Of a DNA stretch of 64,000 nucleotides, positions 3,301-52,846 are shown piece after piece. This DNA comes from Patescibacteria group bacterium. GTDB lineage: Bacteria > Patescibacteriota > Patescibacteriia > Magasanikbacterales > GWA2-37-8. The DNA is taken from contig JAKLGL010000001.1 of assembly GCA_022710645.1 (NCBI GenBank), positions 167,426 to 231,425 of the forward strand. Direction: 5' to 3'. The notes under the pieces are model-generated. The model did not search any database. It had not been told where the DNA came from and saw nothing but the letters and a program-made list of their open reading frames with translations. Every line of letters starts with the position of its first letter. Within the stretch, counting starts at the first letter, position 1. Made by a program: the position numbers and the translations under genes.

Positions 3301-4770
3301 AGCCGTTTCTTCTTCTTTTTTCAAATTTTCTTTGCCGACAGTTTTATTTTTTTCCGATTGACGAAGTAAAGAAGCAAATTTTTCTTTTACATTGCCTTCT
3401 TCCATTTTATGTTTGTAATAATCAGCAATATCCCCTTTTCCACCTATAGCTCTGACCAAATCTGTGGCAAATTTAACACCTAAAACCGAAGTGATTGATT
3501 TGTAAGCTGTTTCAGCAGCCATATCTCTGACTTCTTCTTTTTTCAAAACTTCTTTACTCTTTCCAAAAACCTCTTTTGTTTTATTCCAAATTTTTCCAAA
3601 AAAGCCTTTCTTTTCTTCTGTCGGTAAAACAGCTTTCTCCGGAGCGACTATGGTTTTGTCAGTGATATCTTTTAAATCCGCCAAAAAAGCCGTGCGCGCT
3701 TTTTCAAAATCCCCTCGCTCTTCATCATCTTCGGCTTTTTCAACCAAAACCAAATAAGCCTTTGCCGTATCTATGAAATCGGCAGGCATGCTTTTCGCTT
3801 CTTCACCAGAAATATATTTTTGTATTTCTTTTTTGAAAATACTTGCTTCGTTTTTCAAAATTTCCAAGTCGTTTTCCTTGGTTTTTACAGTTTCAATTTT
3901 TATCTCCGGTTTTGCTTCAGGTACGACTTTGATTTCCGGTTCGGGTTTTTCTTCTTTGGCAACAACTTTGACCACAGGTTTGACCTCTTCGACTACTTGC
4001 TGAATTTCTTTTTCTTCTTCTTTTGCCGGAATCTTTTCTTGCGGTTGAACTTCTTCTTGCGGTTTTTCAACGGTTTCAACCGTGGCTAAATTGCGAATTG
4101 ATTCTTGATTTTGCACCAATTCAGCACTTAATCTCTGTAAGGTTTTTTCCATATTTTCCGCTTTTTCTTCACTCTTTACGGAAAGCAGAGTTTCTTGAGC
4201 TTGTTTCAAAGCTTTTTCTATCTTGGTATAATTATTGATGATTTTTCTCTCCGTTTCTTTCATTTCTTCTTTCTTTTTACCTTCGGATAATTTGGCGATT
4301 TCTTCGCCGTGTTTCTCGAACTTATCTCCAAACTCCGCAAATTTTTTTGTTAAATTGTTTTTTATTTCTTCCAATTTTTTCATTTTTTCTTCTTCCGCTT
4401 TTTGAGCGTTTTCTTTTTCTTTATCATTGGTTTCCGTCTTTTCCATTTCTTTCAATGCAATATTCTGAGCCGCTTCCCATAGATAACCGGCCGCTTCGCC
4501 ATAAGCTTTTACCGCGTCTTCCTTTTTTATTTCGGCCAAAATTCTTACGGCTTCGGAATTTTTATCCGCCATATCTTTTAGAGTTTTTCTAGCGCTGTCA
4601 TTTCTTTCTTTATCGGATTTTCTAACACCTTTTTTACCTTCAAAATTTTTCTCTTTGAACTTTTCTAACGCTATCAAAAAAACCGCTTCCTGTCTTTTGT
4701 CGGAAAAAATCTTTTTTGTTTCCGGAACACCACCGCCGCGTTCCGCTTTTATAGTATTGTTAGCTGGCAT
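346..4770 (-). CDS. giant K/E-rich coiled-coil protein (1474 aa), no recognisable enzymatic domain
   Basis: uninterrupted 4.4-kb ORF; heptad-like K/E-rich sequence with proline-rich spacers (EKPEPEIKVVPEAKPEIK); no signal peptide or TM helix seen. Confidence 0.8.
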   Translation of the reverse strand: MPANNTIKAERGGGVPETKKIFSDKRQEAVFLIALEKFKEKNFEGKKGVRKSDKERNDSARKTLKDMADKNSEAVRILAEIKKEDAVKAYGEAAGYLWEAAQNIALKEMEKTETNDKEKENAQKAEEEKMKKLEEIKNNLTKKFAEFGDKFEKHGEEIAKLSEGKKKEEMKETERKIINNYTKIEKALKQAQETLLSVKSEEKAENMEKTLQRLSAELVQNQESIRNLATVETVEKPQEEVQPQEKIPAKEEEKEIQQVVEEVKPVVKVVAKEEKPEPEIKVVPEAKPEIKIETVKTKENDLEILKNEASIFKKEIQKYISGEEAKSMPADFIDTAKAYLVLVEKAEDDEERGDFEKARTAFLADLKDITDKTIVAPEKAVLPTEEKKGFFGKIWNKTKEVFGKSKEVLKKEEVRDMAAETAYKSITSVLGVKFATDLVRAIGGKGDIADYYKHKMEEGNVKEKFASLLRQSEKNKTVGKENLKKEEETAFIARARELFYEINKSDRSPKEKQEMKDKLKKLVKQYDSEKGNTEKQAQTAVIDIVDDYTKNKVSGVSIAKDFLNTLTTATGTYALRGVIYGTAAAAEKYLKLRKENRRRESSGETRKGILKELTVGSFNETLKELNVLDKEKTATKKVIDVIKASGVLLRVAGIGGLAIGELHQEGAGIIEKTLENIKNATEHGVLEKGGALNNFAANFDRLTLGSTNLSEKIDSLSGKISSEVLASGTLMAQGLENDTSPNNEDIDMKLPWEKEEPLYAEEKLSPTDIPETTETPEPVEIDTTIHKGDGYYDVFKRQIEADPEKFGFKDEGDVDDFIEKKTKEFLKINNLWKNGKSVGLIYNPEAKIVLNSDGSFTENNVETYKMEIPKPKVEIPQTKVTTETSLEKNESPKMTGEEIIAENKSVFNKADRKELDEIYSKTVKDIQKDFGDAKAQKFVEKMDVVNKRLNDLENVVSQHKVEGSDNLAGRLKDLKTALLKAQEDEVPANYKSTLSMLDDIKATIDSDIKIIENQTGGGQTAESVNADLSTEQMIAENYENLAKAGEHKEAAMRSLGLSNEEIINKIQEEADTKEAAGRALLEKEKLAEMQAEEAKIDKAFAQEEINAKASEMKWQEMQKSFDTQRAQSQQEIDEMFKNLQRRYVDDPENLSKLNRQLEKSQSILAKASLVKDSLKNTPEDKSSLTDVIEKTSKSLDKSNIDFFKKLPHVQEAQSWAKDYSGAGEDKVQEALLKLNTATKETNSADYLKAVKRIEELKNEIEKTEKVGLVGILNKEKTVDEVMAKPIDPADRAKLDAIRQEAHDAEIKAKEEVARYAAEQEEANKLKEIKTERMKATAGALDNRAAEISLSLAEKQTAKAFEDAYKYLEEKQKEVDFIRSVDAEKESFNIQKEIKALEKLSRALEKANEKGVPLDKEKVNDFVVKMEMIKRNSDNDGALEAIKEAEDYLKKGGKLDKYMEMVKDAVSQVLRGPNS

Positions 4771-7167: not shown

Positions 7168-7959
7168 TCATTTCCATTTAACTAAAAACAAAAAACCGAT
7201 AAATAAAATAAAATTTATAATCAAAAAAATATTCTGTTTGCGCCAATTGATTCCATCTTTACTGAGATTAAAACGAACCATCAACCAAAAAACATACCAA
7301 AACCAAACCACTATCAAGCCGTTTACCAAAAACCCGAGCGGCCATAACCAAAGCGCAAATGAAAGTTCCAAAAAAGTAAAAAAACAAGCAATAACACTCC
7401 ACCATAAACGATCTTTATTTTCCAGTCCGTATTCTCTCCACCACCAATATGAAATAGAAGAAGTGATAAGAGACGCCAAAATCAAACCTAACCAAAAATA
7501 ATTAAAACTTATCAACTGAAAAGAAGATCCGGCATACAATGAACTCCAAAGTAACGCCAAACCGAAAACATCCATCAGTAAAAGCCAACGACGATAAGGT
7601 TTTATGACAAAGTTAATAACTCCCGGTTCACTTTTGGTCGGTAAAAGCCAAAAACTGACTCCGGAAAAAATAACAAATAAAGCCACAGTCAAAGTTAACG
7701 CCTGACCCCACTCCATAAAGATGAGAGATAACAACACCCCGACGTTAAAGAAAAGAAGTGAAATAAAATGACGTAAACGAGAAAGCTCCTTCGGATAATA
7801 AACCAGACGGATAAAGAAAATCCACAAAACAGTCCTTAAAACAAACCAAGCTAAAAGAGTTTGCCAATGCCCCAATCTAAACAACCCCCAAAACATAACC
7901 AAATTGGCTATAACATCTATAAAAGCCGCTAATTTGGGATGAAAAGAAATATTTTTCAT
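7168..7959 (-). CDS. polytopic integral membrane protein (about 8 TM, Trp-rich)
   Basis: hydrophobic segments throughout; ORF of 263 aa. Confidence 0.65.
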   Translation of the reverse strand: MKNISFHPKLAAFIDVIANLVMFWGLFRLGHWQTLLAWFVLRTVLWIFFIRLVYYPKELSRLRHFISLLFFNVGVLLSLIFMEWGQALTLTVALFVIFSGVSFWLLPTKSEPGVINFVIKPYRRWLLLMDVFGLALLWSSLYAGSSFQLISFNYFWLGLILASLITSSISYWWWREYGLENKDRLWWSVIACFFTFLELSFALWLWPLGFLVNGLIVVWFWYVFWLMVRFNLSKDGINWRKQNIFLIINFILFIGFLFLVKWK

Positions 7960-8676: not shown

Positions 8677-9067
8677 GGGGATGTTTGGTTTCGACAAAAG
8701 TTCCTTGACAAGCTGGCATACCGGGGCGGCATTTGGCCTCGATAAAAACCAAATGCATCAAATAAGTGCCAACTTATTTTCAAAAGCCAGAGCAATATTC
8801 GCTAACACGATGAGCTTTGCGCCTGCCATGGCCTAAATAAGGCTTCATGCGCCATCGTGCCGATAATACGAAGTAGTCGGTTGCGGTGTCACTTACTTCG
8901 CGTAGGTTCAAATTCGTACCGACGGATTTGTTCCGAAGGCATTTCGGTTAAGCGTTAAAAATTCCGTTGCCCCATTATTTTAACGCCGAAAACTACCGGG
9001 ACAACTATGTATGTAGAAGGTTTGTTGAAAACTTTTTGGACGCGAGTTCGACTCTCGCCATCTCCAC
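8677..9067 (+). ncRNA. ssrA: tmRNA (ssrA)
   Basis: 5' GGGGAUGUUUGGUUUCGAC and 3' GGACGCGAGUUCGACUCUCGCCAUCUCCA tRNA-like ends that base-pair as an acceptor stem; internal tag frame ANTMSFAPAMA-stop; adjacent to smpB. Confidence 0.85.
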
Positions 9068-9167
9068 GGTCGCTTTCGCGACTAGTAAAAAGTTCATAAA
9101 GTTCATAAAGTTCCGATAAATTGATTTTATAAACTTTATAACTTTAAAAACTTTATAAACTCCGCTT

Positions 9168-19451: not shown

Positions 19452-20597
19452 TTATACTATTTTTCGCAACGCCAATCCTATAGCTACCGACATTCTCGGA
19501 CCGATTTCATTGAGCACTGGTTTGAGTTTTTCTTGATGGACAACTCTGGCCCACGGATCTCCCAAAAAACAACGTATTTGAAATTTCTCCGCTAAAAACT
19601 GGGCTATATAAGGCAAGCTTGCCGCTCCGCCGGTCAAAATTATTTTTTCCGGTTTTTTTTGTTCATTACCCGTTTGTCGCAAATAAACATCAAAACCGTA
19701 TTCTATTTGTTTAACAATAGGATCGATAACCGGGTTAAGCAATGCTAAAAATTTATCTTTATCCAAAGAATTTTTTCCACTCCCGGATTGAAAATGAAAT
19801 ATGTCTGTTTTAATCTGTTCAATTTCTTCATTTTCCACTCCCAAAGTTTTTTGTAATAAAACATCTATCTTATCCCCTCCCAAAGTCAAAGAATGGTGAG
19901 TTATCGGCGCACCCTGATCAATGATAAAAAAATTCGTTCGTTCCGCGCCCATATCTATCAACATAGTGACAGCCGTATCACGTCCGACCAAAGAACGAGC
20001 CAAAGCGACTGATTCCGGCTCCAAAGCTTGGAGCGTTAAACCGGCTTTGGTAAAAACTTGAGTATAAAAAGTCACCAATTTTTTGGAAACAGCGTTAACA
20101 ATAACTTTCTGATTTTTATCTCCGTTCTTGATAATCTGATAATCGAGAACCATTTCTTCCACCGGAAGAGGCAATAATTTTTTGATTTCCGCTTTCAAAA
20201 CCGCATCAAATTCTTTTCTGTCCAATTGAGGCAAATTGACAACTGTATGAAAAACAGCGGAAATCGGTAAACTGGCGGTGGCTAATTTTGAAACAGTTTT
20301 TGCCATTTTACAAACAGCTTTCAAATCAGCGGCGTAATTTTCTATTTGTTTAGGATCTTGCGCTTCCGGTAAATCTTGCAGTCGCAATTCTTTACCCGTA
20401 ACAATATTTTTACTTTTTAATAAATCCTCGACTGTTTTTTCCGTCGGAGCAAAAAGCTTATGGATATTTTTACGTTCCGAACCATAACCATAGGTAAAAA
20501 GAACCGGACGATTTTTTTCCTGTTTCAATTCAACCAATTTTATACCGTGCGCACCCAAATCCACCCCCAAATAGGATTTTGGTTTAGAAAATAACAT
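19452..20597 (-). CDS. pilM: type IV pilus assembly protein PilM (actin-like ATPase fold)
   Basis: SYLGVDLGAHGIKLVELK N-terminus, ...ILTGGAASLP, C-terminal ...IGLALRKIV. Confidence 0.8.
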   Translation of the reverse strand: MLFSKPKSYLGVDLGAHGIKLVELKQEKNRPVLFTYGYGSERKNIHKLFAPTEKTVEDLLKSKNIVTGKELRLQDLPEAQDPKQIENYAADLKAVCKMAKTVSKLATASLPISAVFHTVVNLPQLDRKEFDAVLKAEIKKLLPLPVEEMVLDYQIIKNGDKNQKVIVNAVSKKLVTFYTQVFTKAGLTLQALEPESVALARSLVGRDTAVTMLIDMGAERTNFFIIDQGAPITHHSLTLGGDKIDVLLQKTLGVENEEIEQIKTDIFHFQSGSGKNSLDKDKFLALLNPVIDPIVKQIEYGFDVYLRQTGNEQKKPEKIILTGGAASLPYIAQFLAEKFQIRCFLGDPWARVVHQEKLKPVLNEIGPRMSVAIGLALRKIV

Positions 20598-20899
20598 AAT
20601 TAAAAGTCTATAAAGTTAAAAAGTCTTTAAAGTCTACAAAGTCACGACTTGATGGACGTTATAGACTTTATGGACTTTTGACTTAAATATTATACCATAT
20701 TTTAATGTCAAAAACCACTAGGGTTGAAAAAGTTGTTAAAATAAGATAAAATTCCAATGGTTAAACTCTAAATCCTAAGCCCTAAATTCTAAACAATATC
20801 CAATATTTAATATTCAATATCAAAAAATTTGAAATTTGAAATTCAATATTGTTTAGAGATTAGAAATTAGAGCTTAGAATTTAAATCATACTCTAAAAT
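20598..20899. repeat. composite intergenic repeat region: AAGTCTATAAAGT-family units (20602-20690) plus a long AT-rich palindrome (20750-20899)
   Basis: ctaaacaatatccaatatttaatattcaatatcaaaaaatttgaaatttgaaattcaatattgtttagag is a near-perfect palindrome; 20611-20690 is homologous to 36268-36345. Confidence 0.75.
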
Positions 20900-22475: not shown

Positions 22476-22985
22476 TTACTTTTTGATAAACATCAGTGAT
22501 ACCTCGTCGGTGTCAATAACAACCGGATTCTTCTTGCTCTTCACAGTGAGCATCAACTGGAAGGCTTTTCCTTCACAGTTAAGCACTGTAAGAGAATTTT
22601 CGTTGCCGAAAACAATATTTCCTTTCAAAGGTTTGTTTTCTTTTGTAACTTCTTCCTCGGAAATCTTTTTTTCAGGAAAGATTTTTTCATAGTGTTTTTT
22701 GAATCTTTCATCTTTTTTTGTTTCCGGAAAATGTCTGAAGATAGATTCCATTACAAAAATCTGGTAATGTACTGACCACTCTTCTCCGGCTTTAAACATC
22801 TCTTCTGCCAGTTTAAACAACCTGTCTTTCATAAGATTGTTTTTCTGATAAAAGAGTGTTCCCGCTTCAATTGCCTGTCCTACACCTGCGGGAGAAATGT
22901 TTAACAGCTTTTTCAACTCCACATTTTTAAATCTTGTTTCTTCAAGAAACAATCTGATTCTCTCTTTTCCAGTTAACTCATCCAT
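22476..22985 (-). CDS. hypothetical protein (169 aa) with codon usage unlike its neighbours
   Basis: AGGAG RBS; promoter TTGACA-17-TATAAT at 23041-23070; frequent ctg/cag/gtg/aag codons versus tta/caa/aaa in nearby genes. Confidence 0.55.
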   Translation of the reverse strand: MDELTGKERIRLFLEETRFKNVELKKLLNISPAGVGQAIEAGTLFYQKNNLMKDRLFKLAEEMFKAGEEWSVHYQIFVMESIFRHFPETKKDERFKKHYEKIFPEKKISEEEVTKENKPLKGNIVFGNENSLTVLNCEGKAFQLMLTVKSKKNPVVIDTDEVSLMFIKK

Positions 22986-23070: not shown

Positions 23071-23192
23071 TAGTCTTTCTTGGCTAATATAAGCCAAAAC
23101 AAAATTTAAAAAACCGCCAAAAAGGCGGTTTTTTACTTTATAAAAAGACTTTATGGACTTTATAAACTTTATGGACTTTTCAGACTTTCACC

Positions 23193-24122
23193 CTACATCC
23201 ATTTCTTCCTTTTAAATATCAATATCATAAGCAACGCGCCCAAACCTATCAAACCGGCAATTATCCAAAAACCTCCCGGAGTATTCACAAAAGGTCTACC
23301 TGGAGCTTCGATGGCAAAAAGCGCAGCAACCAAAGTAAGCGGAAAAGTCACTACTGAAATCAAAGTTAAAGTTTTCATCACTTCATTGGTACGCAAAGTA
23401 AGAATAGACTCATTGGTTTCATGCAGGGCATTGATACTTTCTTTTTGACTTTCTAAGATATGCCAAATCTCGTTGGCAAACTCGCGAAGATTGTTGATAT
23501 AGTTTTGATAAGAAAACAGATCCAGTTCCCTGCCGCTATACATGATGAGACGCTCCAACACAGTCCTGTGTCCTTGCATGGTGCGGCGGAAAGTAACGAT
23601 ATTGGTTTTGAGACGCAAAATTTCTTCAGCCATGTCGCGTCCGGATATTTTGTGGGCAAAAAGTTCGCCGTCAACCTGATTGATGTCTTCATTGACATGG
23701 AGCAATATCGGGAAAATCGATTCGAGCAATTGACTTAATAATTCAAATAAAATATGAACCGCTGTGCCGGAAAAAAATTTCGCTCGAATTTCATCGTTCT
23801 TTTTACACAAGTTAAAAAAATTATCCAAAATCGGCAATTTATTATCATGAACGGTTACCAAAAGATTGCTACTCAAAAAGAAATCCACTTCGGTAAAACC
23901 CAGACGTCTGGTTTCTCTGTCAAAAACCGGAAAATGCAAAACCATAAAATAATAATGGTCGCGTTTCATTATTTTGGCGCGCTGAAAAGGCGGTAAACTT
24001 TCTTTGATATCGCCATGATCAAAACCAAACTTCTTTTGAAGTTTGAACAATTCTTTTTCCGATTGCTCCGGCACATTTACCCAAAGTATGCCCTGATGAG
24101 ATATTTCGCTTGTGGTTTTCAT
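23193..24122 (-). CDS. CorA-superfamily divalent cation channel homolog lacking the GMN motif
   Basis: C-terminus ...LTLISVVTFPLTLVAALFAIEAPGRPF...IIAGLIGLGALLMILIFKRKKWM aligns with CorA TM1-loop-TM2 and the KKKWL end, but AIE replaces GMN. Confidence 0.7.
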   Translation of the reverse strand: MKTTSEISHQGILWVNVPEQSEKELFKLQKKFGFDHGDIKESLPPFQRAKIMKRDHYYFMVLHFPVFDRETRRLGFTEVDFFLSSNLLVTVHDNKLPILDNFFNLCKKNDEIRAKFFSGTAVHILFELLSQLLESIFPILLHVNEDINQVDGELFAHKISGRDMAEEILRLKTNIVTFRRTMQGHRTVLERLIMYSGRELDLFSYQNYINNLREFANEIWHILESQKESINALHETNESILTLRTNEVMKTLTLISVVTFPLTLVAALFAIEAPGRPFVNTPGGFWIIAGLIGLGALLMILIFKRKKWM

Positions 24123-24204
24123 AACCCTCCAAAAATTATTTTTTAGCTAATTTCATTATACCACATATTCGGCTTTCTCTCCAAATCACAATCAAAAAGC
24201 GTAT

Positions 24205-24747
24205 TTGTTATCATTTGAAAAAAGTGCTATAATATGGAAAAAGAAAAATGTGGCCATAACTCCGGAAAAACAACTTCTAAACATGGAAGATAACCAGGCA
24301 GAACAAGCCGGAGATTTTGTCGTAAAAGAAAATAAAGAATCGGCAGAAAGCAAAAAAGAGACTCTTTCTCCCAAAAAAGAAAATCAATCTAAGCCAGAAA
24401 CGGAAAAAAAGCCTTTTTTCAAAAAACCTCGCATTGTTTCCGTGGCAGTGCCCAAATTACGCGACGCAACAACGGTCAGGGTGGAAAAAATCATGGAAGA
24501 GGGTTTGCGCGAAGCTTATGAAAAGATGTCCCCCATCGCCAAACAAGAATTCAAAATCAAGGGCGAAGAAACAGCGGAAAAAATCGGCCAACTGCTCAAA
24601 AAAACTCATGTAAAAGTCAGGAAAATTTTCACTTTGATTTTTGAATGGCTCAAGATGATACCCGGGGTTAATTATTTTTTTCTGGAACAAGAAGCCAAAA
24701 TCAAAGCTGATCGCATACTAGCTTTAAAAAATCATCAAAAAGAATAA
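24205..24747 (+). CDS. hypothetical K/E-rich protein (start may be at 24283)
   Basis: ORF immediately upstream of, and co-oriented with, the ATPase gene (3-nt gap). Confidence 0.5.
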   Translation: MLSFEKSAIIWKKKNVAITPEKQLLNMEDNQAEQAGDFVVKENKESAESKKETLSPKKENQSKPETEKKPFFKKPRIVSVAVPKLRDATTVRVEKIMEEGLREAYEKMSPIAKQEFKIKGEETAEKIGQLLKKTHVKVRKIFTLIFEWLKMIPGVNYFFLEQEAKIKADRILALKNHQKE

Positions 24748-24749: not shown

Positions 24750-27308
24750 ATGTCTTTGTTGGGAATTTTTGAAATTAATCTAAGTCTTGATATATTGACA
24801 TCTTTAGGGTTTCCGCCCGAGACTCAAACCGTAGTGTTCAGCGCCGCGCTTATTTTGGTATGCTTGATATTAATGGTCAAAATTTTACGCTTGGTGATGC
24901 ATGAAAAAAATCGTCGCGGGAAAGCTTTTCATAAAACCGTATTTTTGATAAAAGTCCCAAAAGAAAAAAAAGGTGATAAGCAAGAAAGTTTTCAAGAAGA
25001 AAACATAAATCAAATTCGCGAACAAATAGGTACGGCGGAAACTTTATTCTCCAACATCGCCGGCTTGCGTCCGCAAAAAGGTTTTGGGGCTTGGTTGTCC
25101 GGTCGAAACGATAATTTATCTTTTGAAATTGTCGTTAAAGACGGATCTATTTCTTTTTATGTAGCAGTCCCGGCCAAACTTCGCAGTTTGGCGGAACAAC
25201 AAATACACGCTCAATATCCCAATGCCGAAATCAGCGAAGAACCTGATTACAATATTTTCAAGCCGCAAAGTCATATTGTCGGCGCTTATCTCACTTTTAA
25301 AGAAAAATCTTTTTTTCCTTTTAAAACCTACAAACATCTGGAAAGCGATCCTTTGCCGGCATTATTAAACCCTCTTTCAAAATTGGAAAATGATGAAGGC
25401 GCGCTTATCCAATATATAGTCAGACCGGCAGCAAGCAACTGGCGCAAATCCGGAGTTAGAATAGTGCGAGAAATAAAGGAAGGCAAAAAATTCGAATCTG
25501 TTTTGAAAAATTCCGGTTTTAGCAATGCCGCCGCTTCTTGGACTAAAATTATTTTTTCCAACAATAAAAAAGATACTTTGAATCCCAAAGAACCTTACCA
25601 CCTTACTCAGATGGAAGAAGAAATGGTAAAAGGAATGGAAGAAAAAATGAGTCGCGGCGGATTGGAAATCACTGTGCGTTTGGTCAGTTCGGCAAATTCA
25701 CGCGAAAAAGCTAGGTTGAATCTGGATAATATTATCAACGCGTTTTCTCTTTATAATATTTATCGTTACGGAAATTCTTTTTCTGCGCTTATTCCTCGTC
25801 GACCCAATCGTTTGATTCAAGATTCTATCTATCGCGCTTTCAATGAAAAATTTTCTCGAGTCGCTTCCACTGAAGAAATGGCTTCTTTTTGGCATTTACC
25901 TCTCCCCTCCACCGAGACGCCTCATATCAATTGGTTGGGAGCCCGCAAAGCGCCGCCACCGCTTAATATGCCAAACGAGGGTATTGTTTTGGGTCGTTGT
26001 GTTTATCGCGGAGAAGAAACAACTGTCAGGATGAAGCGAGCCGATAGACGACGTCATCTTTACACTATCGGTAAATCCGGCGTTGGTAAATCCGTATTCA
26101 TTCAAAACTTAGCCGTTCAAGACGTGCTTAACGGCGAAGGTGTTTGCGTTATAGATCCGCACGGTGATTTTGCCGAATATGTGCTGCAACATGTTCCCAA
26201 AGAACGCGCCGAAGATGTTATTTATTTCAATCCTTCAGATACCGAACGACCCATAGGTCTCAACATGCTTGAAGTTAAAACCGAAGATCAAAAAGATTTT
26301 GCTTGCCAAGAAATGATTTCCATTTTTTATAAAATGGTTACCGATCCGTCCATGATCGGTCCGATGTTTGAACACAACATGAGAAATGTCATGTTAACCT
26401 TAATGTCAGATGATGTTATGCCGGGAACGATAGCTGAGATTCCGCGTATGTTCACGGACGATGAATTTGTAGAAACTTGGAAGAAAAAATTAAAAGACCC
26501 GGTAGTCATGGCTTTTTGGGAAAAAGAAATGGCCAAAACTTCAGATTTTCACAAATCGGAAATGCTCGGATATCTCATTTCCAAAGTCGGTCGTTTTGTA
26601 GAAAACGCCATGATCAGAAATATTATCGGTCAATCGCATTCCGGATTTAATTTTCGCGAAATCATGGATAACAAAAAAATATTGATAGTAAATTTGGCCA
26701 AAGGATTAGTCGGAGAGATAAACTCCAATTTACTCGGTATGATCATTGTTTCCAAGTTACAAATGGCCGCCATGGAACGAGCATCTTTATCAGAAGAAAA
26801 ACGCCATGATTTTTATTTGTATATTGACGAGTTTCAAAATTTCATTACCGATTCCATAGCCACCATTCTTTCCGAAGCTCGCAAATATCGCTTAAATTTG
26901 ATAGTCGCCAACCAATATATGAAACAATTGGAAGACAATAAAGGCAAAACCGCGGTGCGAGATGCCATCTTGGGAAATGCCGGCACTATCGCCTCTTTTC
27001 GTATCGGTATAGAAGATGCAGAAATACTACAAAAAGAATTTGCGCCCGTATTTTCAGCTTATGATTTGGTCAATGTAGAACAATACACCGCTTATGTGAA
27101 ATTGCTTATTGACAATACCGCCGCCAAACCGTTTAATATGTATACTCTACCGCCTCAACCAGGTAACAAAGAAATGGCGGCCGCTATCAAAGAACTCTCT
27201 CGTTTGAAATACGGACGACCCAGAGAAATAGTCGAAGCGGAAATTTTGGAAAGATCGGCGTTAGGCTCTATCATGACCGGCACTCAACCGACCGAACCGA
27301 GTTTATAA
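24750..27308 (+). CDS. membrane-anchored FtsK/HerA-superfamily P-loop ATPase (VirB4/VirD4/TraG-like, AAA_10/DUF87-type) with a large unrecognised N-terminal domain
   Basis: N-terminal TM (AALILVCLILMVKIL); ~400-aa N-domain shared with ORF 34753-36099; Walker A YTIGKSGVGKS; VCVIDPHGDF; NPSD...P.GLN; Walker B FYLYIDEFQNF; LIVANQYMKQL (Q..QL motif typical of conjugative coupling / HerA ATPases). Confidence 0.85.
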   Translation: MSLLGIFEINLSLDILTSLGFPPETQTVVFSAALILVCLILMVKILRLVMHEKNRRGKAFHKTVFLIKVPKEKKGDKQESFQEENINQIREQIGTAETLFSNIAGLRPQKGFGAWLSGRNDNLSFEIVVKDGSISFYVAVPAKLRSLAEQQIHAQYPNAEISEEPDYNIFKPQSHIVGAYLTFKEKSFFPFKTYKHLESDPLPALLNPLSKLENDEGALIQYIVRPAASNWRKSGVRIVREIKEGKKFESVLKNSGFSNAAASWTKIIFSNNKKDTLNPKEPYHLTQMEEEMVKGMEEKMSRGGLEITVRLVSSANSREKARLNLDNIINAFSLYNIYRYGNSFSALIPRRPNRLIQDSIYRAFNEKFSRVASTEEMASFWHLPLPSTETPHINWLGARKAPPPLNMPNEGIVLGRCVYRGEETTVRMKRADRRRHLYTIGKSGVGKSVFIQNLAVQDVLNGEGVCVIDPHGDFAEYVLQHVPKERAEDVIYFNPSDTERPIGLNMLEVKTEDQKDFACQEMISIFYKMVTDPSMIGPMFEHNMRNVMLTLMSDDVMPGTIAEIPRMFTDDEFVETWKKKLKDPVVMAFWEKEMAKTSDFHKSEMLGYLISKVGRFVENAMIRNIIGQSHSGFNFREIMDNKKILIVNLAKGLVGEINSNLLGMIIVSKLQMAAMERASLSEEKRHDFYLYIDEFQNFITDSIATILSEARKYRLNLIVANQYMKQLEDNKGKTAVRDAILGNAGTIASFRIGIEDAEILQKEFAPVFSAYDLVNVEQYTAYVKLLIDNTAAKPFNMYTLPPQPGNKEMAAAIKELSRLKYGRPREIVEAEILERSALGSIMTGTQPTEPSL

Positions 27309-29831: not shown

Positions 29832-29902
29832 TCCGAGGTGGTCTAATGGTAGGACAGCAGACTCTGAATCTGCTTATCTTGGTTCGAGTCCAAGCCTCGG
29901 AA
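29832..29902 (+). tRNA. tRNA-Gln (anticodon CTG)
   Basis: TCCGAGGTGGTCTAATGGTAGGACAGCAGACTCTGAATCTGCTTATCTTGGTTCGAGTCCAAGCCTCGGAA cloverleaf; anticodon loop CTCTGAA. Confidence 0.75.
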
Positions 29903-34752: not shown

Positions 34753-36099
34753 TTAAGCGTAAGGCAATTCTTCCGGTTCAGGAGGTTTTTCTTGTTTTTG
34801 TTCTTCTTTATATTTCAATCCTCCTTCAAAAACCTCTACTGGTAAATTGGTCGGCGGTTCACTGCGTTTTCCGCCGGCTTTTTGGATAAGCGGGGCTTTT
34901 ACCGTCGGCATCGGGAAATGCCACAAAGTCGCCAACTCTTCTATATTCAACATATATGGATCGCTTTTTAATTTCATTTTTCTTTTTTTGTAGGCTGAAA
35001 CCGCATCATTTCCCCCGATAGATGAAGCCTTGAAACCGTTTTGGTTGGCAATATAAAACTGATTGATAGAACCTATAAAACCATTGATACATTTTTTGGG
35101 ATTGAACACTTCTTTGCGAGCGCTATAGAGTAAACGCAAACGAGATTTAAAACCAAGTTTAGAAATTTTATTTTCAATTCCGGAAATGGCATTTTTGACA
35201 CCCGGCGCCACTTCTCCTTTACTCTCTTCTTTTTTCTTTTCACTGCCGCTAAAATCATGAGTCCAAATTTGCCAAATTAATTTTAAAATACCTTCAGTAA
35301 AATTAGCAACGTGTTGAGCGGCATTCGGTTTGGGCGGAGCCTTTTTACCGCTAGCCAAATTTTTTACCAAATCTATCCCCTTTTTCTTCCAACTATTGTC
35401 CGCCGGTTCTACTATGAGTTGCATCCATAAATTTTCACCAGCGCCGATACGCGTAAAATTTTCCAAAATTGCCGCCATCGGATCAATAAACGGCGCATCT
35501 TTGTATAAACTATGTTCAAACTCCGTATAAGTACGTATCGGATAAGAATCATCTTCCGCCATATCAAATTCCACACCCGCCACTTCATAACGATTATCCG
35601 GAAAATTATCCGGTAAATTCGTGATATAATCTTCAACTTCGGTTATTTCCGCTTCCGGGTATTGAGCATAGATAGCAGCTTCAACCAGATCTCGAAACTC
35701 ACTCGGCATTCTCACCAGAAATTGAATATACCCCTCCAAACTGATAATTTCTAAACTGAAATTTTTTTGCTTTTTACCTAACCAATATTTATCATAAAGG
35801 CCTATTTTGGAATATATACCGCTAAAATGTGTAAAAATTTGTTCCACTGCGCGAGGAGATTGGATAACTGCCGCCGGAATATCCACAGCCAAAACAGACC
35901 AAGAGCAAGTACTGTCAAATCTTTTTTGTTTCAAAGACAAAACTTCTCCCAAACCTTTATGAAAAAGGGGGGTTATCGGCAACCACCAAAGAAATACAAA
36001 AGCCAACCGCAATTGTTCGGTCAAACTCATTTCCATAAATGTCTGCCAAAAACCCAAACTTATGGAAAAATTCCACGGTGTTTCAATAACCGGAACCAT
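34753..36099 (-). CDS. membrane-anchored protein paralogous to the N-terminal domain of the 852-aa ATPase (no ATPase module)
   Basis: aligns with 24750-26070: IYAQYPEAEITEVEDY vs IHAQYPNAEISEEPDY; LWMQLIVEPADNSWKKKG vs ALIQYIVRPAASNWRKSG; WHFPMPTVKAP vs WHLPLPSTETP; ATG at 36099, or TTG at 36108. Confidence 0.7.
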   Translation of the reverse strand: MVPVIETPWNFSISLGFWQTFMEMSLTEQLRLAFVFLWWLPITPLFHKGLGEVLSLKQKRFDSTCSWSVLAVDIPAAVIQSPRAVEQIFTHFSGIYSKIGLYDKYWLGKKQKNFSLEIISLEGYIQFLVRMPSEFRDLVEAAIYAQYPEAEITEVEDYITNLPDNFPDNRYEVAGVEFDMAEDDSYPIRTYTEFEHSLYKDAPFIDPMAAILENFTRIGAGENLWMQLIVEPADNSWKKKGIDLVKNLASGKKAPPKPNAAQHVANFTEGILKLIWQIWTHDFSGSEKKKEESKGEVAPGVKNAISGIENKISKLGFKSRLRLLYSARKEVFNPKKCINGFIGSINQFYIANQNGFKASSIGGNDAVSAYKKRKMKLKSDPYMLNIEELATLWHFPMPTVKAPLIQKAGGKRSEPPTNLPVEVFEGGLKYKEEQKQEKPPEPEELPYA

Positions 36100-36100
36100 A

Positions 36101-36259
36101 TTAATCAATTAAACGATAAATCAAACCGTATACGATTATCACCGTAACCCCGGTCCACCACCATCCGGATAAACCTGAGAAGTATCCGGCAATGTAAGCC
36201 AAAAGGCAACATATTGTGGCTAAAAAAGAAACCAGGTGTTTTACCGTATTATCAGACAT
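36101..36259 (-). CDS. small hydrophobic protein (~51 aa), probably co-transcribed with 34753-36099
   Basis: MSDNTVKHLVSFLATICCLLAYIAGYFSGLSGWWWTGVTVIIVYGLIYRLID; its stop abuts the downstream start; not in the ORF track because shorter than 60 aa. Confidence 0.4.
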   Translation of the reverse strand: MSDNTVKHLVSFLATICCLLAYIAGYFSGLSGWWWTGVTVIIVYGLIYRLID

Positions 36260-36415: not shown

Positions 36416-37327
36416 TTAAAATATTTTTTTTGTTCTCTGCCATTGCTCCACAAGAGCCAAAAGTGGTGAAGCGATAAAAATAGAAGAATAAGCTCCGGAA
36501 GCTACTCCGATAAGCAAGGCCAAAACAAAATTATGTATGGTCGGACCGCCAAAGAAAAACAAAGCAAAAAGCGGTAACAAAGTTGTCAAAGTAGTATTAA
36601 TAGAACGAGCAAAAGTTTGATTTAAGCCATCATTTACCACTTCGGCAAAACTGCGATTACCACGATGAATAAGATTTTCTCTGATTCTGTCGTAAACCAC
36701 GATAGTATCGTTGATAGAATAACCCAAAACGGTTAGAAGCGCCACTACAAAAGCGACATCCACTTCCACCCCTTTGAAACGTCCAAGCACAGCAAAAACA
36801 CCCATTACCAAAAGCAAATCATGCAAAACAGCTACCAACGCCAAAGTGCCGTATTTCCAACTTTTTACCGGTTGAGAAACTTTACGGAAAGCATAAGCTA
36901 CATACAAAATAACACCCAAAGAAACAAACACTATCGCCCAAATCGCTCGTTCTCTCAATTGTTTACTAACAGAAGAACCGATGGTTTCAAAACGTTGTTC
37001 TATAAGATCATTATCTTTACTTAACTCTTGAATTTTTTTCAAAATTTGTTGATGTTTTTCTTCACTCAAAAAAGAAGCGCGAATAATCAAATTTTTATCC
37101 TCGGCTTTTTGAACTGAAGTATTGTTAATTCCTTCGTCCTCAAAAATTTTAACTATGGATTCCGGAGTCGGACGTTCTTGGTTGAATTCCACTTCCATCA
37201 AGGAGCCTCCAGTAAAATCAATACCTGGACGCAATCCCCAAATAAAAATGAAAGCCAAGGCAACTATTGATACAGTCAAACCAATACCGACCCAAAGTTT
37301 GGAATATTTAATAAATTGAATATTCAT
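36416..37327 (-). CDS. secF: protein translocase subunit SecF
   Basis: GIDFTGGSLMEVEF start of SecF, six-TM C-domain. Confidence 0.9.
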   Translation of the reverse strand: MNIQFIKYSKLWVGIGLTVSIVALAFIFIWGLRPGIDFTGGSLMEVEFNQERPTPESIVKIFEDEGINNTSVQKAEDKNLIIRASFLSEEKHQQILKKIQELSKDNDLIEQRFETIGSSVSKQLRERAIWAIVFVSLGVILYVAYAFRKVSQPVKSWKYGTLALVAVLHDLLLVMGVFAVLGRFKGVEVDVAFVVALLTVLGYSINDTIVVYDRIRENLIHRGNRSFAEVVNDGLNQTFARSINTTLTTLLPLFALFFFGGPTIHNFVLALLIGVASGAYSSIFIASPLLALVEQWQRTKKIF

Positions 37328-37332: not shown

Positions 37333-39402
37333 TTATTTCTTAATTTCGTTAATAGCTTCGCCTTGTTTTTTATCAAAACCCAAAAAGAAAATATTTCCTT
37401 CCGGTTTGAACCAAGCAAAAGAGAAACGACATAATATTCTGGTGATAGTAACAGCGGTAAACATGGAAACCAATACACCGATAGCCAAAGTCACAGCAAA
37501 ACCTTGAACAAAACCAGTACCAAGCCAGATCAAAAATACACAACTGATAAGAGTGGTTATATTACTGTCGCGAATAGAACTCCAAGCGCGAATAAACGCT
37601 TCTTCCATAGCCGTAGTCAAAGTTTTTTTGTTTTTCAATTCTTCTTTGAGGCGTTCAAAAACCAAAACATTGGCATCAACCGCCATACCAACAGAAAGAA
37701 TGAAACCGGCGATACCGGAAAGAGTCAATGTCACACCCAATAACTTGAACAAAGCCAAAGTGATAGAGCCGTAAATTACCAAAGAAAAAACAGATACTAT
37801 GCCCGGCCAGCGATAATACAAAATCATGAATAAAATAATTAACATCAAACCTACCAAACCGGCTTTGAAACTGGAAGTTAAAGAATCCGCTCCCAATGTA
37901 GCATCCACTTTTTGTTGAGAAATCAATTCTACAGGCACAGGCAAAGCGCCAGAGTTCAATCTTTGGGCCAATAAACGAGCTTCTTCCCAAGTAAATTCAC
38001 CGCTTATAACAGCACTTCCATCTTTAATAGGTTCGTTTACTTTAGGTACGCTTATCGGTTGACCATCCAAGAAAATAGCTACCGGTTTACCGACATTACG
38101 TGTAGTTAAATCGCCAAACAATTTTGCGCCATCAGTATCAAATTGCAAACTAACTTGAACTTGACCGGTACGAGAATCAGAAACAACTTCGGCTCTTTTT
38201 AACTGTTTACCGGAAAGTCCGGTATCTTTCCATTCGTCAGCCGGAGGAACAAAATCGGTTTTATCTTTGGTATTAACAAAAATTCTGGCAATTTCATATT
38301 CTTTCGGGGTTTTTTCATCTTTTTTATAAATTAAATGAAAACCAAAAGGAGTTTCTACTACATCGGATATTTGTCCTTTTTGCATGGCAAAAACGGCATT
38401 TTCAAAATCAGGCACCATGTCGCCTTTTTTGAACCAACCCAAATCCCCGCCTCTGTCGGCAGCACCCGGTTCAGTGGAATATTGTTTTACCAAATCAGCA
38501 AATCCGGAAACAGTGGCTTGCTGTTTGATTTCTTGAATTTTTTTCAAAGCATCTTCTTTGGTCGGATAATTTTGACTGTCGCAATTCGTGGCTCCGGTAT
38601 AACAAATCAAAAGATGGGCGGCGTTGACTTGAACATCACCGTCTTTTTCGGAAATTTTCTTGACTATATTATAACCGTCTACGCTTTTTATAACTCTACT
38701 ATTAACACCGGTTTTAGCGGTTTTGGCCCAAGCGTAAATTTCCGGTTGAGCATCTTCGGAGATAAAACCGATATTGCCGCTATTGTTTTTTGATTCTAAA
38801 TCTTCACTATAACGATTAACCGCTTCCACAAAAGTTATTTTGCGCAAATCGGTCAAAGCTTGATTAATCTTTTTTTCCGCAGCTTTATTGTATTCATTCA
38901 TTTGTTTGGTTTCGTCCGCAGTCATTTCTCTTTGTCCTTCTGTATTCTGTTCTTTAAACGCCAAAACCGGAGTTTCTCCGATCATTTTGATAGCTTGGTT
39001 AACATCAGTCACACCCGGAAGTTCTACGATAACACGATATTCTTCACCGACTCTGGTGGTTTGTACCAAAGGTTCGGCCACACCGAGTCCTCCGCGAACA
39101 CGTCTTTCAATAACGTCGCGAACACCTTCAACAGAACCGGCTTTGTCCTTTTCTGCTATATTGGAAGTGTCGGCTTGATAAATCAAATGAGCTCCACCGC
39201 GCAAATCCAGACCGAGATTAAACCCGTTATCCGGCAAAAGCGGCATACCGATACTCATTTTATCGTTAATAAATTTAAAACCACTGTTGACAATACTCGG
39301 GAAAATTACCACGAGACAAAGCAACAATAAAGCAAACGAACCGGCCACCCTCCAGTAAATTTGGGTTCGCGTAAACTTCTTGGGAGCAAGATTGCTAGCC
39401 AT
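37333..39402 (-). CDS. secD: protein translocase subunit SecD with an embedded parvulin-type peptidyl-prolyl isomerase domain
   Basis: N-terminal TM plus LGLDLRGGAHLIY SecD start and C-terminal SecD TM bundle; the internal segment VNAAHLLICY...GGDLGWFKKGDMVPDFENAVFAMQKGQISDVVETPFGFHLIYK is a canonical PpiC/parvulin domain. Confidence 0.85.
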   Translation of the reverse strand: MASNLAPKKFTRTQIYWRVAGSFALLLLCLVVIFPSIVNSGFKFINDKMSIGMPLLPDNGFNLGLDLRGGAHLIYQADTSNIAEKDKAGSVEGVRDVIERRVRGGLGVAEPLVQTTRVGEEYRVIVELPGVTDVNQAIKMIGETPVLAFKEQNTEGQREMTADETKQMNEYNKAAEKKINQALTDLRKITFVEAVNRYSEDLESKNNSGNIGFISEDAQPEIYAWAKTAKTGVNSRVIKSVDGYNIVKKISEKDGDVQVNAAHLLICYTGATNCDSQNYPTKEDALKKIQEIKQQATVSGFADLVKQYSTEPGAADRGGDLGWFKKGDMVPDFENAVFAMQKGQISDVVETPFGFHLIYKKDEKTPKEYEIARIFVNTKDKTDFVPPADEWKDTGLSGKQLKRAEVVSDSRTGQVQVSLQFDTDGAKLFGDLTTRNVGKPVAIFLDGQPISVPKVNEPIKDGSAVISGEFTWEEARLLAQRLNSGALPVPVELISQQKVDATLGADSLTSSFKAGLVGLMLIILFMILYYRWPGIVSVFSLVIYGSITLALFKLLGVTLTLSGIAGFILSVGMAVDANVLVFERLKEELKNKKTLTTAMEEAFIRAWSSIRDSNITTLISCVFLIWLGTGFVQGFAVTLAIGVLVSMFTAVTITRILCRFSFAWFKPEGNIFFLGFDKKQGEAINEIKK

Positions 39403-39826: not shown

Positions 39827-42577
39827 TTAAGCTCCGCAACATTTTTTAAACTTCTTTCCACTACCGCACGGACAAGGATCGTTTCGTCCAATTTCTTTAT
39901 TTTGATTTTTTCTAATCGATGCACCGGCGCTATCACCAGCTTCTTTTTCCGCGCCTTGAAAAACCAAATTTTGAGAAGCAAGCGCAGAAGCGGACATTTC
40001 TACACCAAGTGTTACTTTATAAATCGTATAGACTATTTCTTTTTGAATATAACTCAAAAGCTCGTTAAACATGTGATAAGTCTCTTTTTTGTATTCAACC
40101 AGAGGATCGCGTTGACCATAACCGCGTAAACCTATGCCGGTACGCAAATAATCTATAGCTACCAAATGCTCTATCCACAAATTATCTATTCCTCGCAACA
40201 AGACTTGTTTTTCTATTTCCAATAAAAATTCCGGCTCACTGATTTTTTTAACTAATAAATCTTCGTATTTTTCTTTGGACAATTTTACCAAATAATCGGT
40301 TAATTCGCTTCTCTCCTCCACTTCCGGAATTCCGCTTGAAATCGACGGCTTAAAATTTAAAATTTTATCTTTTTCTTCCGCGTTTAAAGGAAAAATAGTT
40401 GAAACGGTTTCCGCTATTTCTTTGAAATTCCAAGAGTTATGATCTTCGTAATTGGTATGAAAAGAAACCACGCTCTCTATTTCTTGCTCCACCATTTCCA
40501 AAATAATATCTCTTAGCGGTTTAAAATCCGCGGCTAAAACAATATTTTCTCCTCGTAATTTTGATTTTTCCGTATCAAAAGATTTCAAAACCTGACGACG
40601 TTTACTATATATAACTTCTCGATGTTTATTGAGAACATCATCATATTCCAACAAGTGTTTACGGGCGTCAAAATGAAATCCTTCCACTTTACGTTGAGCG
40701 GATTCTATAATTTTACTGATAGTTTTATTTTCTATCGGCATATCATCCGGCACTTTGAGTGTTTGCATTACCCCTCTAATCCTGTCGCCGGCAAAAATAC
40801 GCATCAAATCATCTTCTGTACTCAAATAAAATTGCGACATACCCGGATCTCCTTGACGTCCGGCGCGACCACGCAACTGATTATCAATACGGCGACTTTC
40901 ATGACGTTCGGTACCGATTACAAATAAACCTCCTAGTTCGCGCACTTTTTTGGCCTTTTCCGGATCTTGAGGATTACCACCAAGTATGATATCCACGCCA
41001 CGACCGGCCATGTTGGTAGCCAAAGTCACCGCGCCCGGCGCGCCGGCCTGAGCGATAATTTCACCTTCACGTTCATGGTTCTTGGCATTGAGTATTTCAT
41101 GGTGTACTCCTTCCATTTCCAAATATTGACTCAATATCTCATTCTTATCTACAGATATTGTACCTATGAGCACTGGTTGCCCCTTTAACTGTAGAGCTTT
41201 AACCTCTTTGGCTATAGCTTTAAATTTCACATCCTCGGTACGATAGATTCTATCGGCCAAATCCTTTCTTTGTCTTTGTTTATTGGTCGGAATAGTCACT
41301 ACTTCCAATTTATAAATTTTTCCAAACTCTTCAGCTTCGGTTACGGCCGTACCGGTCATACCCGCCAATTTTTCATACATACGAAAATAATTTTGGAAGG
41401 TTACGGTTGCCATAGTTTGACTTTCACGTTGGATTTGTACACCCTCTTTGGCTTCTATCGCTTGATGCAATCCTTCACTGTATCGACGCCCCGGCATTTT
41501 ACGTCCGGTAAATTCGTCAACTATTACCACTTCCCCGTTTTCAACCACATAATCTCTATCGCGTTTTAAAATAGTTTCCGCTTTTAAAGCTTGTTCAACG
41601 TGGTGCACTGTTTGAATACCGCCTTCCACATAAATATTTTCCACTCCCAAAGCTTTTTCTATTTTATGTATACCGTTTTCCGTCAAAGTAGCGGAACGCA
41701 TCTTTTCGTCCACATTGTAATCTTCATTTTCTTTGAGTTGTTTTACCAAGGCGGCAAATTTATAATAAGTATCCGTAGCCTTTTGCGCCGGAGCAGAAAT
41801 GATAAGAGGAGTTCTGGCTTCATCTATTAAAATAGAGTCGACCTCGTCAACTATCGCATAATAAAGAGGTCTTTGGGACATTTCCATCAAAGAACCTACC
41901 ATGTTGTCGCGTAAATAATCAAAACCGAATTCGTTGTTAGTGCCGTAAATAATATCGCATTGATACGCTTCTTGACGTTTACAAGAAATCAAATATTCGG
42001 TTTTAACTTTATAAACAGCAGTGTTTTCTTTTTTGTTTTCATCGTTTAAAATTGCTTCATCTTTTACTTCCACTTCATGTTTATGAAATTTGTAAGAAAC
42101 CAATAAATTTTGAATGACTCCAACACTTAACCCGAGTGTGTCATAAATTTGCCCCATCCATACCGCGTCGCGTTTAGCCAAATAATCGTTTACCGTAACT
42201 ACATGAACTCCTTTTCCGGTCAAAGCGTTTAAATAAACCGGCAAAGTGGCAACCAATGTTTTACCTTCACCGGTATGCATTTCCGAAATTTGTCCACGAT
42301 GAAGAACAATACCGCCGATAAGTTGAGTATCATAATGACGCATTCCTGTAATGCGTTTAGAGGCTTCGCGAACAACCGCAAAGGCTTCGGGTAAAATATC
42401 TTCCAAAGTTTCACCGTTTGCAAGTCGTTTTTTAAATTCTATTGTTTTTCCTCTTAACTCTTCCATTGACAATTTTTGTATTGTCGATTCGAAAGAATTT
42501 ATTTTTTCTACTACAGGCATTATATCTTTAATAATCTTTGCGTTCGGATCTCCAAAAATTTTCGCTAAAAATGACAT
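39827..42577 (-). CDS. secA: preprotein translocase ATPase SecA
   Basis: MRHYDTQLIGGIVLHRGQISEMHTGEGKTLVATLP; C-terminal Zn finger CPCGSGKKFKKCCG. Confidence 0.95.
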   Translation of the reverse strand: MSFLAKIFGDPNAKIIKDIMPVVEKINSFESTIQKLSMEELRGKTIEFKKRLANGETLEDILPEAFAVVREASKRITGMRHYDTQLIGGIVLHRGQISEMHTGEGKTLVATLPVYLNALTGKGVHVVTVNDYLAKRDAVWMGQIYDTLGLSVGVIQNLLVSYKFHKHEVEVKDEAILNDENKKENTAVYKVKTEYLISCKRQEAYQCDIIYGTNNEFGFDYLRDNMVGSLMEMSQRPLYYAIVDEVDSILIDEARTPLIISAPAQKATDTYYKFAALVKQLKENEDYNVDEKMRSATLTENGIHKIEKALGVENIYVEGGIQTVHHVEQALKAETILKRDRDYVVENGEVVIVDEFTGRKMPGRRYSEGLHQAIEAKEGVQIQRESQTMATVTFQNYFRMYEKLAGMTGTAVTEAEEFGKIYKLEVVTIPTNKQRQRKDLADRIYRTEDVKFKAIAKEVKALQLKGQPVLIGTISVDKNEILSQYLEMEGVHHEILNAKNHEREGEIIAQAGAPGAVTLATNMAGRGVDIILGGNPQDPEKAKKVRELGGLFVIGTERHESRRIDNQLRGRAGRQGDPGMSQFYLSTEDDLMRIFAGDRIRGVMQTLKVPDDMPIENKTISKIIESAQRKVEGFHFDARKHLLEYDDVLNKHREVIYSKRRQVLKSFDTEKSKLRGENIVLAADFKPLRDIILEMVEQEIESVVSFHTNYEDHNSWNFKEIAETVSTIFPLNAEEKDKILNFKPSISSGIPEVEERSELTDYLVKLSKEKYEDLLVKKISEPEFLLEIEKQVLLRGIDNLWIEHLVAIDYLRTGIGLRGYGQRDPLVEYKKETYHMFNELLSYIQKEIVYTIYKVTLGVEMSASALASQNLVFQGAEKEAGDSAGASIRKNQNKEIGRNDPCPCGSGKKFKKCCGA

Positions 42578-52195: not shown

Positions 52196-52266
52196 CAGGG
52201 AGTGCAGGAATCGAACCCGCGCTAAAGGTTTTGGAGACCCTTGTACTACCATTATACGAACTCCCT
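52196..52266 (-). tRNA. tRNA-Trp (anticodon CCA)
   Basis: reverse complement AGGGAGTTCGTATAATGGTAGTACAAGGGTCTCCAAAACCTTTAGCGCGGGTTCGATTCCTGCACTCCCTG folds as a cloverleaf. Confidence 0.75.
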
Positions 52267-52305
52267 ATTTTTTAAAGGACAGACCAAAGATCTGTCCTTT
52301 AAAAT

Positions 52306-52470
52306 TTATTTGGTTTCTTTATGTACGGTGTGTTTTTTGCAATGCAAGCAATGTTTTTTCATTTCCAATCTATTTTTCAATGTTTTTTTGTTTTTATTGG
52401 AAAAATAATTGGTGCGCTTACATTCCGTGCATTCCAATTTAATCATGTTGTCGGCATTTTTTGACGGCAT
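52306..52470 (-). CDS. rpmG: 50S ribosomal protein L33
   Basis: [54 protein letters not shown] (Zn-ribbon L33); terminator hairpin at 52270-52305; absent from the ORF track because shorter than 60 aa. Confidence 0.8.
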
Positions 52471-52502
52471 ACAAATATAAATTATTTTTTAAATTAACTC
52501 GG

Positions 52503-52614: not shown

Positions 52615-52687
52615 AGCCGTTGAGCGGATTTGAACCGCTGACCACCTCCTTACCATGGAGGTGCTCTACCAACTGAGCTACAACGGC
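52615..52687 (-). tRNA. tRNA-Thr (anticodon GGT)
   Basis: reverse complement GCCGTTGTAGCTCAGTTGGTAGAGCACCTCCATGGTAAGGAGGTGGTCAGCGGTTCAAATCCGCTCAACGGCT; perfect cloverleaf. Confidence 0.8.
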
Positions 52688-52837: not shown

Positions 52838-52846
52838 ATTTGGGTG

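Follow-up and report, generated by a model that had tools for sequence, protein, structure and literature searches.

A CorA-family protein of Magasanikbacteria with Ala-Ile-Glu at the position of the Gly-Met-Asn motif

The tripeptide Gly-Met-Asn (GMN), or more generally GxN, has given the 2-TM-GxN family its name. It is regarded as universal, as the filter that sets selectivity, and as indispensable to permeation. In the characterised CorA and Mrs2 proteins, Mg2+ transport is lost or severely reduced when GMN is mutated. Some randomised G-M-N variants of Mrs2p, studied by Sponder et al. in 2013, were reportedly functional with changed selectivity. GxN is described both as the family signature and as the selectivity filter (PMC6972854), and Mrs2 is impaired by the change of GMN to AAA (PMC11919701). 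In surveys of CPR bacteria, CorA comes up only as a family that some CPR genomes encode (PMC6744442, PMC8672522). No description of natural prokaryotic CorA lineages without GMN was found in the literature searched, an absence which is no proof of novelty.

The window analysed here is a 64-kb stretch (64,000 nucleotides) of DNA from a Patescibacteria group bacterium. Its nt 23193–24122, stop codon included, hold on the minus strand an ATG-to-stop reading frame for a CorA-fold protein of 309 residues. A protein record of identical sequence (P0001) carries the title 'magnesium transporter CorA family protein [Candidatus Magasanikbacteria bacterium]'. The Pfam CorA profile PF01544 gives a full-length match, residues 10–305 aligning with profile positions 2–292 of 292 (E=3.8e-47, 161.4 bits, cutoff 27). 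Phmmer against PDB sequences covers residues 11–309, with E=1.6e-26 for MjCorA and 5e-22 for TmCorA. The best 50 Foldseek matches in the PDB are without exception CorA chains, and their TM-scores reach 0.80 (0.7–0.8 for TmCorA and MjCorA over about 300 columns). By profile and by fold, the protein is a member of the CorA/MIT superfamily. Assignment to a different 2-TM family was rejected; the other Pfam matches are far under their cutoffs, and the top structural matches are all CorA. The first-pass annotation of this DNA had aligned the C-terminal TM1-loop-TM2 region with CorA, and on this point Pfam, phmmer, MAFFT and AlphaFold/Foldseek agree with it.

The AlphaFold2 monomer model (pLDDT 87.5) has one helix at residues 202–270, coil at 271–283 and a helix at 284–305. 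These are preceded by the N-terminal cytoplasmic alpha/beta/alpha domain, residues 1 to about 200 (nt 23523–24122; all features of the gene are on the minus strand), which is seen in Foldseek and in the model as strands within 5–91 and helices within 97–196. The domain includes an LPPFQR(A/P)K motif and Glu41, the equivalent of TmCorA D89, which is conserved at 99% in the clade described below. The single helix 202–270 (nt 23313–23519) is the stalk running into TM1. TM1 and the pore lining, placed at roughly residues 246–270 from the model and from clade conservation, occupy nt 23313–23387. The triplet A270-I271-E272 (nt 23307–23315) lies at the outer pore mouth, and the extracellular TM1-TM2 loop, residues 271–283 (nt 23274–23312), contains G275-R276-P277. 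TM2, residues 284–305 (nt 23208–23273), begins with Gly284 (Tm G326, 99% in the clade) and Phe285 (100%). The basic C-terminal 'sphincter' F-K-R-K-K-W-M (nt 23196–23216) is aligned to F345-KKKKWL of TmCorA, and the C-terminus of the protein reads ...ISVVTFPLTLVAALFAIEAPGRPFVNTPGGFWIIAGLIGLGALLMILIFKRKKWM.

A promoter-like site, TGGAGA-17-TATAAT with a TG extension, is located at nt 24155–24183, 33 nt upstream of the start codon, and an intrinsic-terminator-like hairpin with a 12-bp stem and a T run at nt 23107–23135, 58 nt past the stop codon, both on the minus strand and both consensus matches only. The two signals suggest that the corA-type gene may be a monocistronic unit. The upstream intergenic space is 82 nt, and no Rfam family, M-box and other Mg2+ riboswitches included, has a match near the gene. 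Directly downstream, at nt 22476–22985 of the minus strand, is a 169-aa ORF without Pfam match, which is conserved in 0 of 65 related loci and has a perfect consensus promoter, TTGACA-17-TG-TATAAT, at nt 23070–23042.

The codons at nt 23307–23315 translate to Ala-Ile-Glu. Phmmer aligned 'alfaieapgrpf' of the window protein to 'giygmnfsylpl' of MjCorA and to 'giygmnfeymp' of TmCorA, and the MAFFT alignment of 265 family members has A-I-E in the columns of Tm G312-M313-N314. Three independent alignments place A270-I271-E272 exactly at the GMN site. The replacement of GMN by AIE at the homologous position, proposed in the first-pass annotation, is thus borne out by the translation and by the alignments to MjCorA and TmCorA. 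Two possibilities that the annotation had set against its own proposal, a GMN-like motif elsewhere in the protein and membership of another two-TM family, were examined and neither held. With no G-x-N tripeptide in the entire 309 residues, a displaced GMN-like motif is ruled out; a G-N-P occurs five residues downstream in 42% of the clade, and the window protein has G-R-P there.

The protein therefore lacks the GxN signature of the 2-TM-GxN family (CorA/ZntB/Mrs2/Alr1). The 'MPEL'-type loop motif is also missing: Pro alone is kept (P277, equivalent to Tm P319 and 95% conserved in the clade), Met is changed to Arg, Thr or Asn, and Glu and Leu are gone. The NCBIfam model for the CorA Mg2+/Co2+ channel equivalog, TIGR00383, scores 151.5 bits, under its cutoff of 200.75. 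The ZntB model NF007092 scores 32.4 bits against a cutoff of 292, and GVN and GIN are as absent as any other GxN. Because the GxN signature and the loop motif are missing and the TIGR00383 score falls short, filing the protein as a CorA Mg2+ channel equivalog is not warranted, while its working as a CorA-type channel is probable.

When a supposedly essential motif is missing, a sequencing or assembly error or a drifting pseudogene has to be considered. An identical protein is encoded by 7 contigs of independent assemblies from JGI, NCBI (GCA_035454185.1) and ENA, which excludes a sequencing error, and the frame is intact. Comparison with a 93%-identical ortholog (L005) yields dN=0.056, dS=0.955 and dN/dS=0.058, a value from this pair only, as dS is saturated against the 71–75%-identical orthologs. 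The alignment of 112 orthologs has a mean column identity of 72% and 40 invariant positions. The gene is under strong purifying selection. The same architecture is found in more than 120 orthologous clusters and in 64 species. Sequencing error and pseudogene are rejected by the independent assemblies and by dN/dS, and the probability of an artefact or a decaying gene is negligible.

GMN was found in none of the 120 best homolog clusters, which are 65–100% identical to the window protein. These clusters together with one protein of 48% identity (P0121) constitute the clade, 0 of whose 121 members have GMN. The clade is monophyletic in an NJ tree built without the motif columns, a rough guide only, the sequences being 27–41% identical. 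With each GTDB species represented by one genome, a scan gave 64 loci, one per genome; where the titles are informative, all are Magasanikbacteria or Patescibacteria. Many contigs that carry the gene in its CPR-typical neighbourhood (L005, L009–L012 and others) are titled 'uncultured Gammaproteobacteria bacterium', probably as placeholder or wrong MAG labels, and L032 is titled 'Candidatus Udaeobacter sp.', probably again a placeholder or wrong label. The loss of GMN is clade-wide and fixed in all detected Magasanikbacteria orthologs. This, and scattered losses in other Patescibacteria, contradict the description of GMN as universally conserved in the first-pass annotation.

The nearest GMN-type proteins (33–41% identity) likewise belong to Patescibacteria, namely the Parcubacteria group and Komeilibacteria. 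A divergent protein of about 160–180 residues adjoins the gene in the window and in 62 of the 65 related loci. Past this small protein the related loci have an ATPase of about 850 residues, DUF8128/TrwB-like (53 loci), dnaX (50) and a C39-like peptidase (40), and cysS is on the other side of the gene in 49 of them. The same arrangement as in the window surrounds the GMN-type proteins P0296 (Komeilibacteria), P0361 and P0368, the GMD-type P0283 and the AMD-type P0125, and the small divergent neighbour is homologous across these lineages with E from 1e-24 to 1e-42. Since canonical GMN CorAs of other Patescibacteria occupy the same locus, the Magasanikbacteria gene corresponds by position to a normal CorA, as its ortholog, and is no redundant paralog. 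A single locus occurs in the states GMN, SMN, GMD, AMD, AID and AIE. Neither a second CorA nor an MgtE was found in the 64-kb window or in the 65 related loci.

In the window the small protein is encoded at nt 24205–24747 of the plus strand. It has no Pfam match, and its C-terminal 85 residues or so are kept across CPR classes (...WLKxIPGVNxFFLEQEAKIKxD...). The gene after it, at nt 24750–27308 (plus strand), encodes an 852-residue membrane-anchored DUF8128 / TrwB-VirD4-like ATPase. With or without GMN in the CorA ortholog, this pair lies divergently beside it in Magasanikbacteria, Komeilibacteria and other Patescibacteria.

Outside the clade, about 60 of 148 representatives at 50% identity are without GxN, and 25 of these have a GxN-type sequence as nearest neighbour, so that loss or erosion of the motif appears to be recurrent in Patescibacteria. 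The figure of about 29 motif changes, estimated on the NJ tree, is indicative only, and is backed by the nearest-neighbour count. Erosion of a single residue is seen from Gly to Ser (SMN) in P0277, P0301, P0304, P0347 and P0354, and from Asn to Asp (GMD) in P0283, P0309 and P0320; the Uhrbacteria protein P0401 has SMD. These SMN, GMD and SMD proteins are otherwise canonical Patescibacteria CorA orthologs, and are plausible intermediates toward AMD, AID and AIE. The extant GMN, SMN, GMD, AMD, AID and AIE forms at the same locus suggest a stepwise path that may have started with the change of Asn to Asp.

The variable and conserved sites were compared over the 121 clade members, with 75 GMN-type relatives as the comparison set. 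Position 270 (Tm G312) is Ala in 57%, Asp in 13%, Gly in 12% and Ser in 11% of the clade, and position 271 (Tm M313) is Ile in 79% and Val in 10%. Position 272, the equivalent of Tm N314, is Asp in 26%, His in 23%, Arg in 15%, Gln in 9%, Glu in 7%, Lys in 6% and Pro in 5%. AIE as such, which the first-pass annotation had proposed to look for in orthologs, is not common to them; the triplet is highly variable across the phylum. Position 272 ranks at the 96th percentile for site entropy; parsimony gives it 41 changes where the median is 11, and its variation resembles that of the freely varying loop positions 279–281.

Within the protein, conservation is highest in the TM1 pore, whose mean entropy is 0.68 versus 0.98 in the N-domain. 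Met249 (Tm M291), Thr253 (Tm T295) and Ser256 (Tm A298) are 100% conserved in the clade, Leu252 (Tm L294), Phe260 (Tm M302) and Pro261 (Tm P303) 99%, Thr263 (Tm T305) 93% and Asn246 (Tm N288) 89%. The conservation of the pore residues equals or exceeds the level in the 75 GMN-type relatives. The basic C-terminus FK(K/R)K-W is kept, with Phe at 99%, Lys or Arg at 304–306 and Trp308 at 97%. On the cytoplasmic side, Glu235 (Tm D277) is conserved at 99%. The equivalent of Tm D253, which with D89 makes up sensor site M1, is Ser or Asn in the clade and lies where the alignment has indels; near it, Glu214 and Glu218 are 99–100% conserved.

The behaviour of position 272, which evolves like an unconstrained loop residue, raises the possibility that the protein is a non-conducting derivative, a CorA-fold metal sensor, regulator or membrane scaffold, perhaps acting with the divergent small protein and the ATPase. 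The loss of transport in GMN mutants of model CorA and Mrs2 proteins (PMC11919701) is in line with this, and so is the fact that the gene stays paired divergently with the small protein and the ATPase across CPR classes. However, the pore and gate residues of TM1 (N246, M249, L252, T253, S256 and T263) are the most conserved ones, which is hard to explain without a pore. The canonical GMN CorAs have the same neighbourhood, so the pairing does not correlate with the loss of the motif, and the gene has promoter-like and terminator-like signals of its own. We consider a non-conducting derivative improbable.

Gly275 is conserved at 83% in the clade. Position 276 (Tm M318) is Arg, Thr or Asn, with just 4 changes over the tree, which splits the clade into three subclades. 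The G-R-P subclade, which holds the window protein and has the motif A/T-I-[D/E]-A-x-G-R-P, has Asp or Glu at 272 in 32 of 32 members. The G-T-P subclade has His, Arg, Gln or Lys at this position, and the G-N-P subclade mixed residues. In the window protein's subclade the pore mouth is conserved as A-I-[D/E]-A-x-G-R-P; among its nearest relatives, it is the acidic third position and the Arg four residues later that are conserved, not AIE as such. The acid at 272 is held down to about 66% identity. Because Asp and Glu are exchanged repeatedly and the acid is never given up, the pattern indicates constraint on a carboxylate at 272 in this subclade. The net charge of mouth and loop is −2 to +1, within the range of the GMN-type relatives.

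The three subclades defined by position 276, each with its own chemistry at 272, could mean that the substrate class has been switched, with the CorA scaffold now serving something else than divalent cations of the Mg2+ type (for example other metals, anions, protons or monovalent cations) and with specificities that may differ by subclade. The residue that defines the Mg2+ selectivity of the family is gone, and ZntB offers a precedent for a different transport mode on the same fold (PMC6972854). Against a switch, the polar and hydrophobic residues that line the pore cannot be told apart from those in the GMN-type orthologs, the loop has kept its net charge, and canonical CorA has its single positional ortholog in this gene. 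The high turnover at 272 is also more like relaxed constraint than like newly fixed specificities. A switch of substrate class is therefore judged unlikely.

Our preferred reading, toward which we lean with reserve, is that the protein still works as a gated, pentameric channel for cations, its outer mouth remodelled and its selectivity altered or relaxed. We take this reading because selection acts most strongly on the pore helix, no other gene is the positional ortholog of canonical CorA, and the acidic residues on the cytoplasmic side have been retained. The protein would assemble as a pentamer, cations would pass through the same pore, and gating would come from the cytoplasmic side; Glu41 (Tm D89), Glu214/Glu218 and Glu235 (Tm D277) are still present. 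The mouth would lack the ring of Asn residues to which partly hydrated Mg2+ binds. In the window protein and its subclade, a ring of five Glu or Asp carboxylates, each with an Arg276, would take the place of the Asn ring. Such a carboxylate ring would still attract cations, with a selectivity that is altered, probably relaxed or shifted.

The first-pass annotation had listed a different substrate, a regulatory or sensor role and loss of transport as implications of the missing motif. Among these, a different or relaxed selectivity appears to be the best fit. Loss of transport, or decay, is disfavoured because of the dN/dS of 0.06 and the near-invariant pore-lining residues. A role as a sensor only seems less likely in view of the same conservation and of the positional orthology to canonical GMN CorAs. 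What counts against the channel reading is that the Asn position is occupied by Arg, Lys and His as well as by Asp, Glu, Gln and Pro. This range of residues excludes a single shared ion-coordination chemistry at the mouth across the clade. A ring of Arg or Lys at 272 would disfavour cation entry, and Glu272 may be neutralised by Arg276.

Several other features of the window and of related genomes were recorded. A SecD homolog of 689 residues (nt 37333–39402, minus strand) has PpiC/parvulin-type rotamase domains at about residues 244–370, between SecD_1st and the P1-head, and is an apparent SecD-PPIase fusion. It is followed by secF at nt 36416–37327, and secA is at nt 39827–42577. A type IV pilus-related cluster lies at about nt 15050–20600 of the minus strand (L001 13526–19073), with genes for a PilM-like ATPase-fold protein, a response regulator, two N-methyl pilins and an A24 prepilin peptidase; it adjoins ligA and the gene of a PEP-utilising enzyme and is syntenic in 34–40 of the 65 related loci. 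A tmRNA gene (130 bits) and six tRNA genes are found at nt 8677–9069 (plus), 11192–11265 (minus), 29832–29902 (plus) and 52196–52928 (minus), the last region holding a cluster of four of the six tRNA genes. Four ORFs of the minus strand have no Pfam match (E<=0.001–0.01): nt 346–4770 (1474 aa), 34753–36108 (451 aa), 7168–7959 (263 aa) and 11372–11968 (198 aa). In a related Magasanikbacteria-like genome of 1.03 Mb (JAUSJE01), a bAvd accessory protein is encoded beside a reverse transcriptase (RVT_1) at L004 1004–2421, about 8 kb from the CorA ortholog. This pair looks like a diversity-generating retroelement, and downstream of it is a restriction-modification-like block with an N6_N4 methylase and a ResIII helicase.

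The Magasanikbacteria and sporadic other Patescibacteria, with the pore intact and the Asn position free to vary, raise a broader proposition, which we put forward tentatively and hold to be possible more than probable: that CorA-fold channels can work in vivo without any GxN filter. If this is true, ions would be selected elsewhere in the pore, or the scaffold would be a differently selective or non-selective conduit with subclade-specific mouths, and the view of GMN as indispensable to the family would be overturned. A natural and ancient lineage without GMN, in which the rest of the pore is under selection, is a ready-made experiment on the contribution of the filter. The GMN-type and AIE-type CPR orthologs, with 40% identity and an almost identical TM1, are suited to a direct test of the filter. 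The subject bears on the Mg2+ supply of ultra-small, host-dependent CPR bacteria, and the automatic annotation 'magnesium transporter CorA family protein' may claim more than has been established. An ortholog without GMN would surprise a specialist in Mg2+ transport and is directly testable; it is not a new kind of system.

Compared with the described systems, the window protein shares full-length homology (E from 1e-22 to 1e-26) and the same fold with TmCorA and MjCorA (PDB 4i0u/3jcf/8tm* and 4ev6/4cy4). The TM1-loop-TM2 lengths are equal, and N288, M291, L294, P303, T305, Pro319, G326 and FKKKKW are kept. The difference is in the mouth, where Y-G-M-N-F-E-Y-M-P stands against F-A-I-E-A-P-G-R-P in the window protein, which is without Gly312, Asn314, the loop Glu316 and Met318 of TmCorA; overall identity is only about 21%. 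The GMN-type Patescibacteria orthologs (P0296, P0361 and P0368) are closer, with 35–41% identity, being alike in length (about 305–313 residues) and in neighbourhood, dnaX and cysS included. Their TM1 is nearly identical to that of the window protein, 'LTIFSVIVFPLTLLAAIF' against 'LTLISVVTFPLTLVAALF', but they keep F-G-M-N and the loop M-P, and the Magasanikbacteria clade is without both.

ZntB and other 2-TM-GxN proteins with GVN or GIN belong to the same superfamily and give a precedent in which a change of the motif accompanies a changed substrate or transport mode (PMC6972854). ZntB nevertheless keeps the Gly and the Asn, whereas the window protein has lost both. In the engineered G-M-N mutants of CorA and Mrs2 the same three positions are altered, and these laboratory mutants are impaired (PMC11919701). 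Unlike them, the altered motif of the Magasanikbacteria is natural and fixed in a phylum-level lineage, and the loop that follows it has been remodelled as well.
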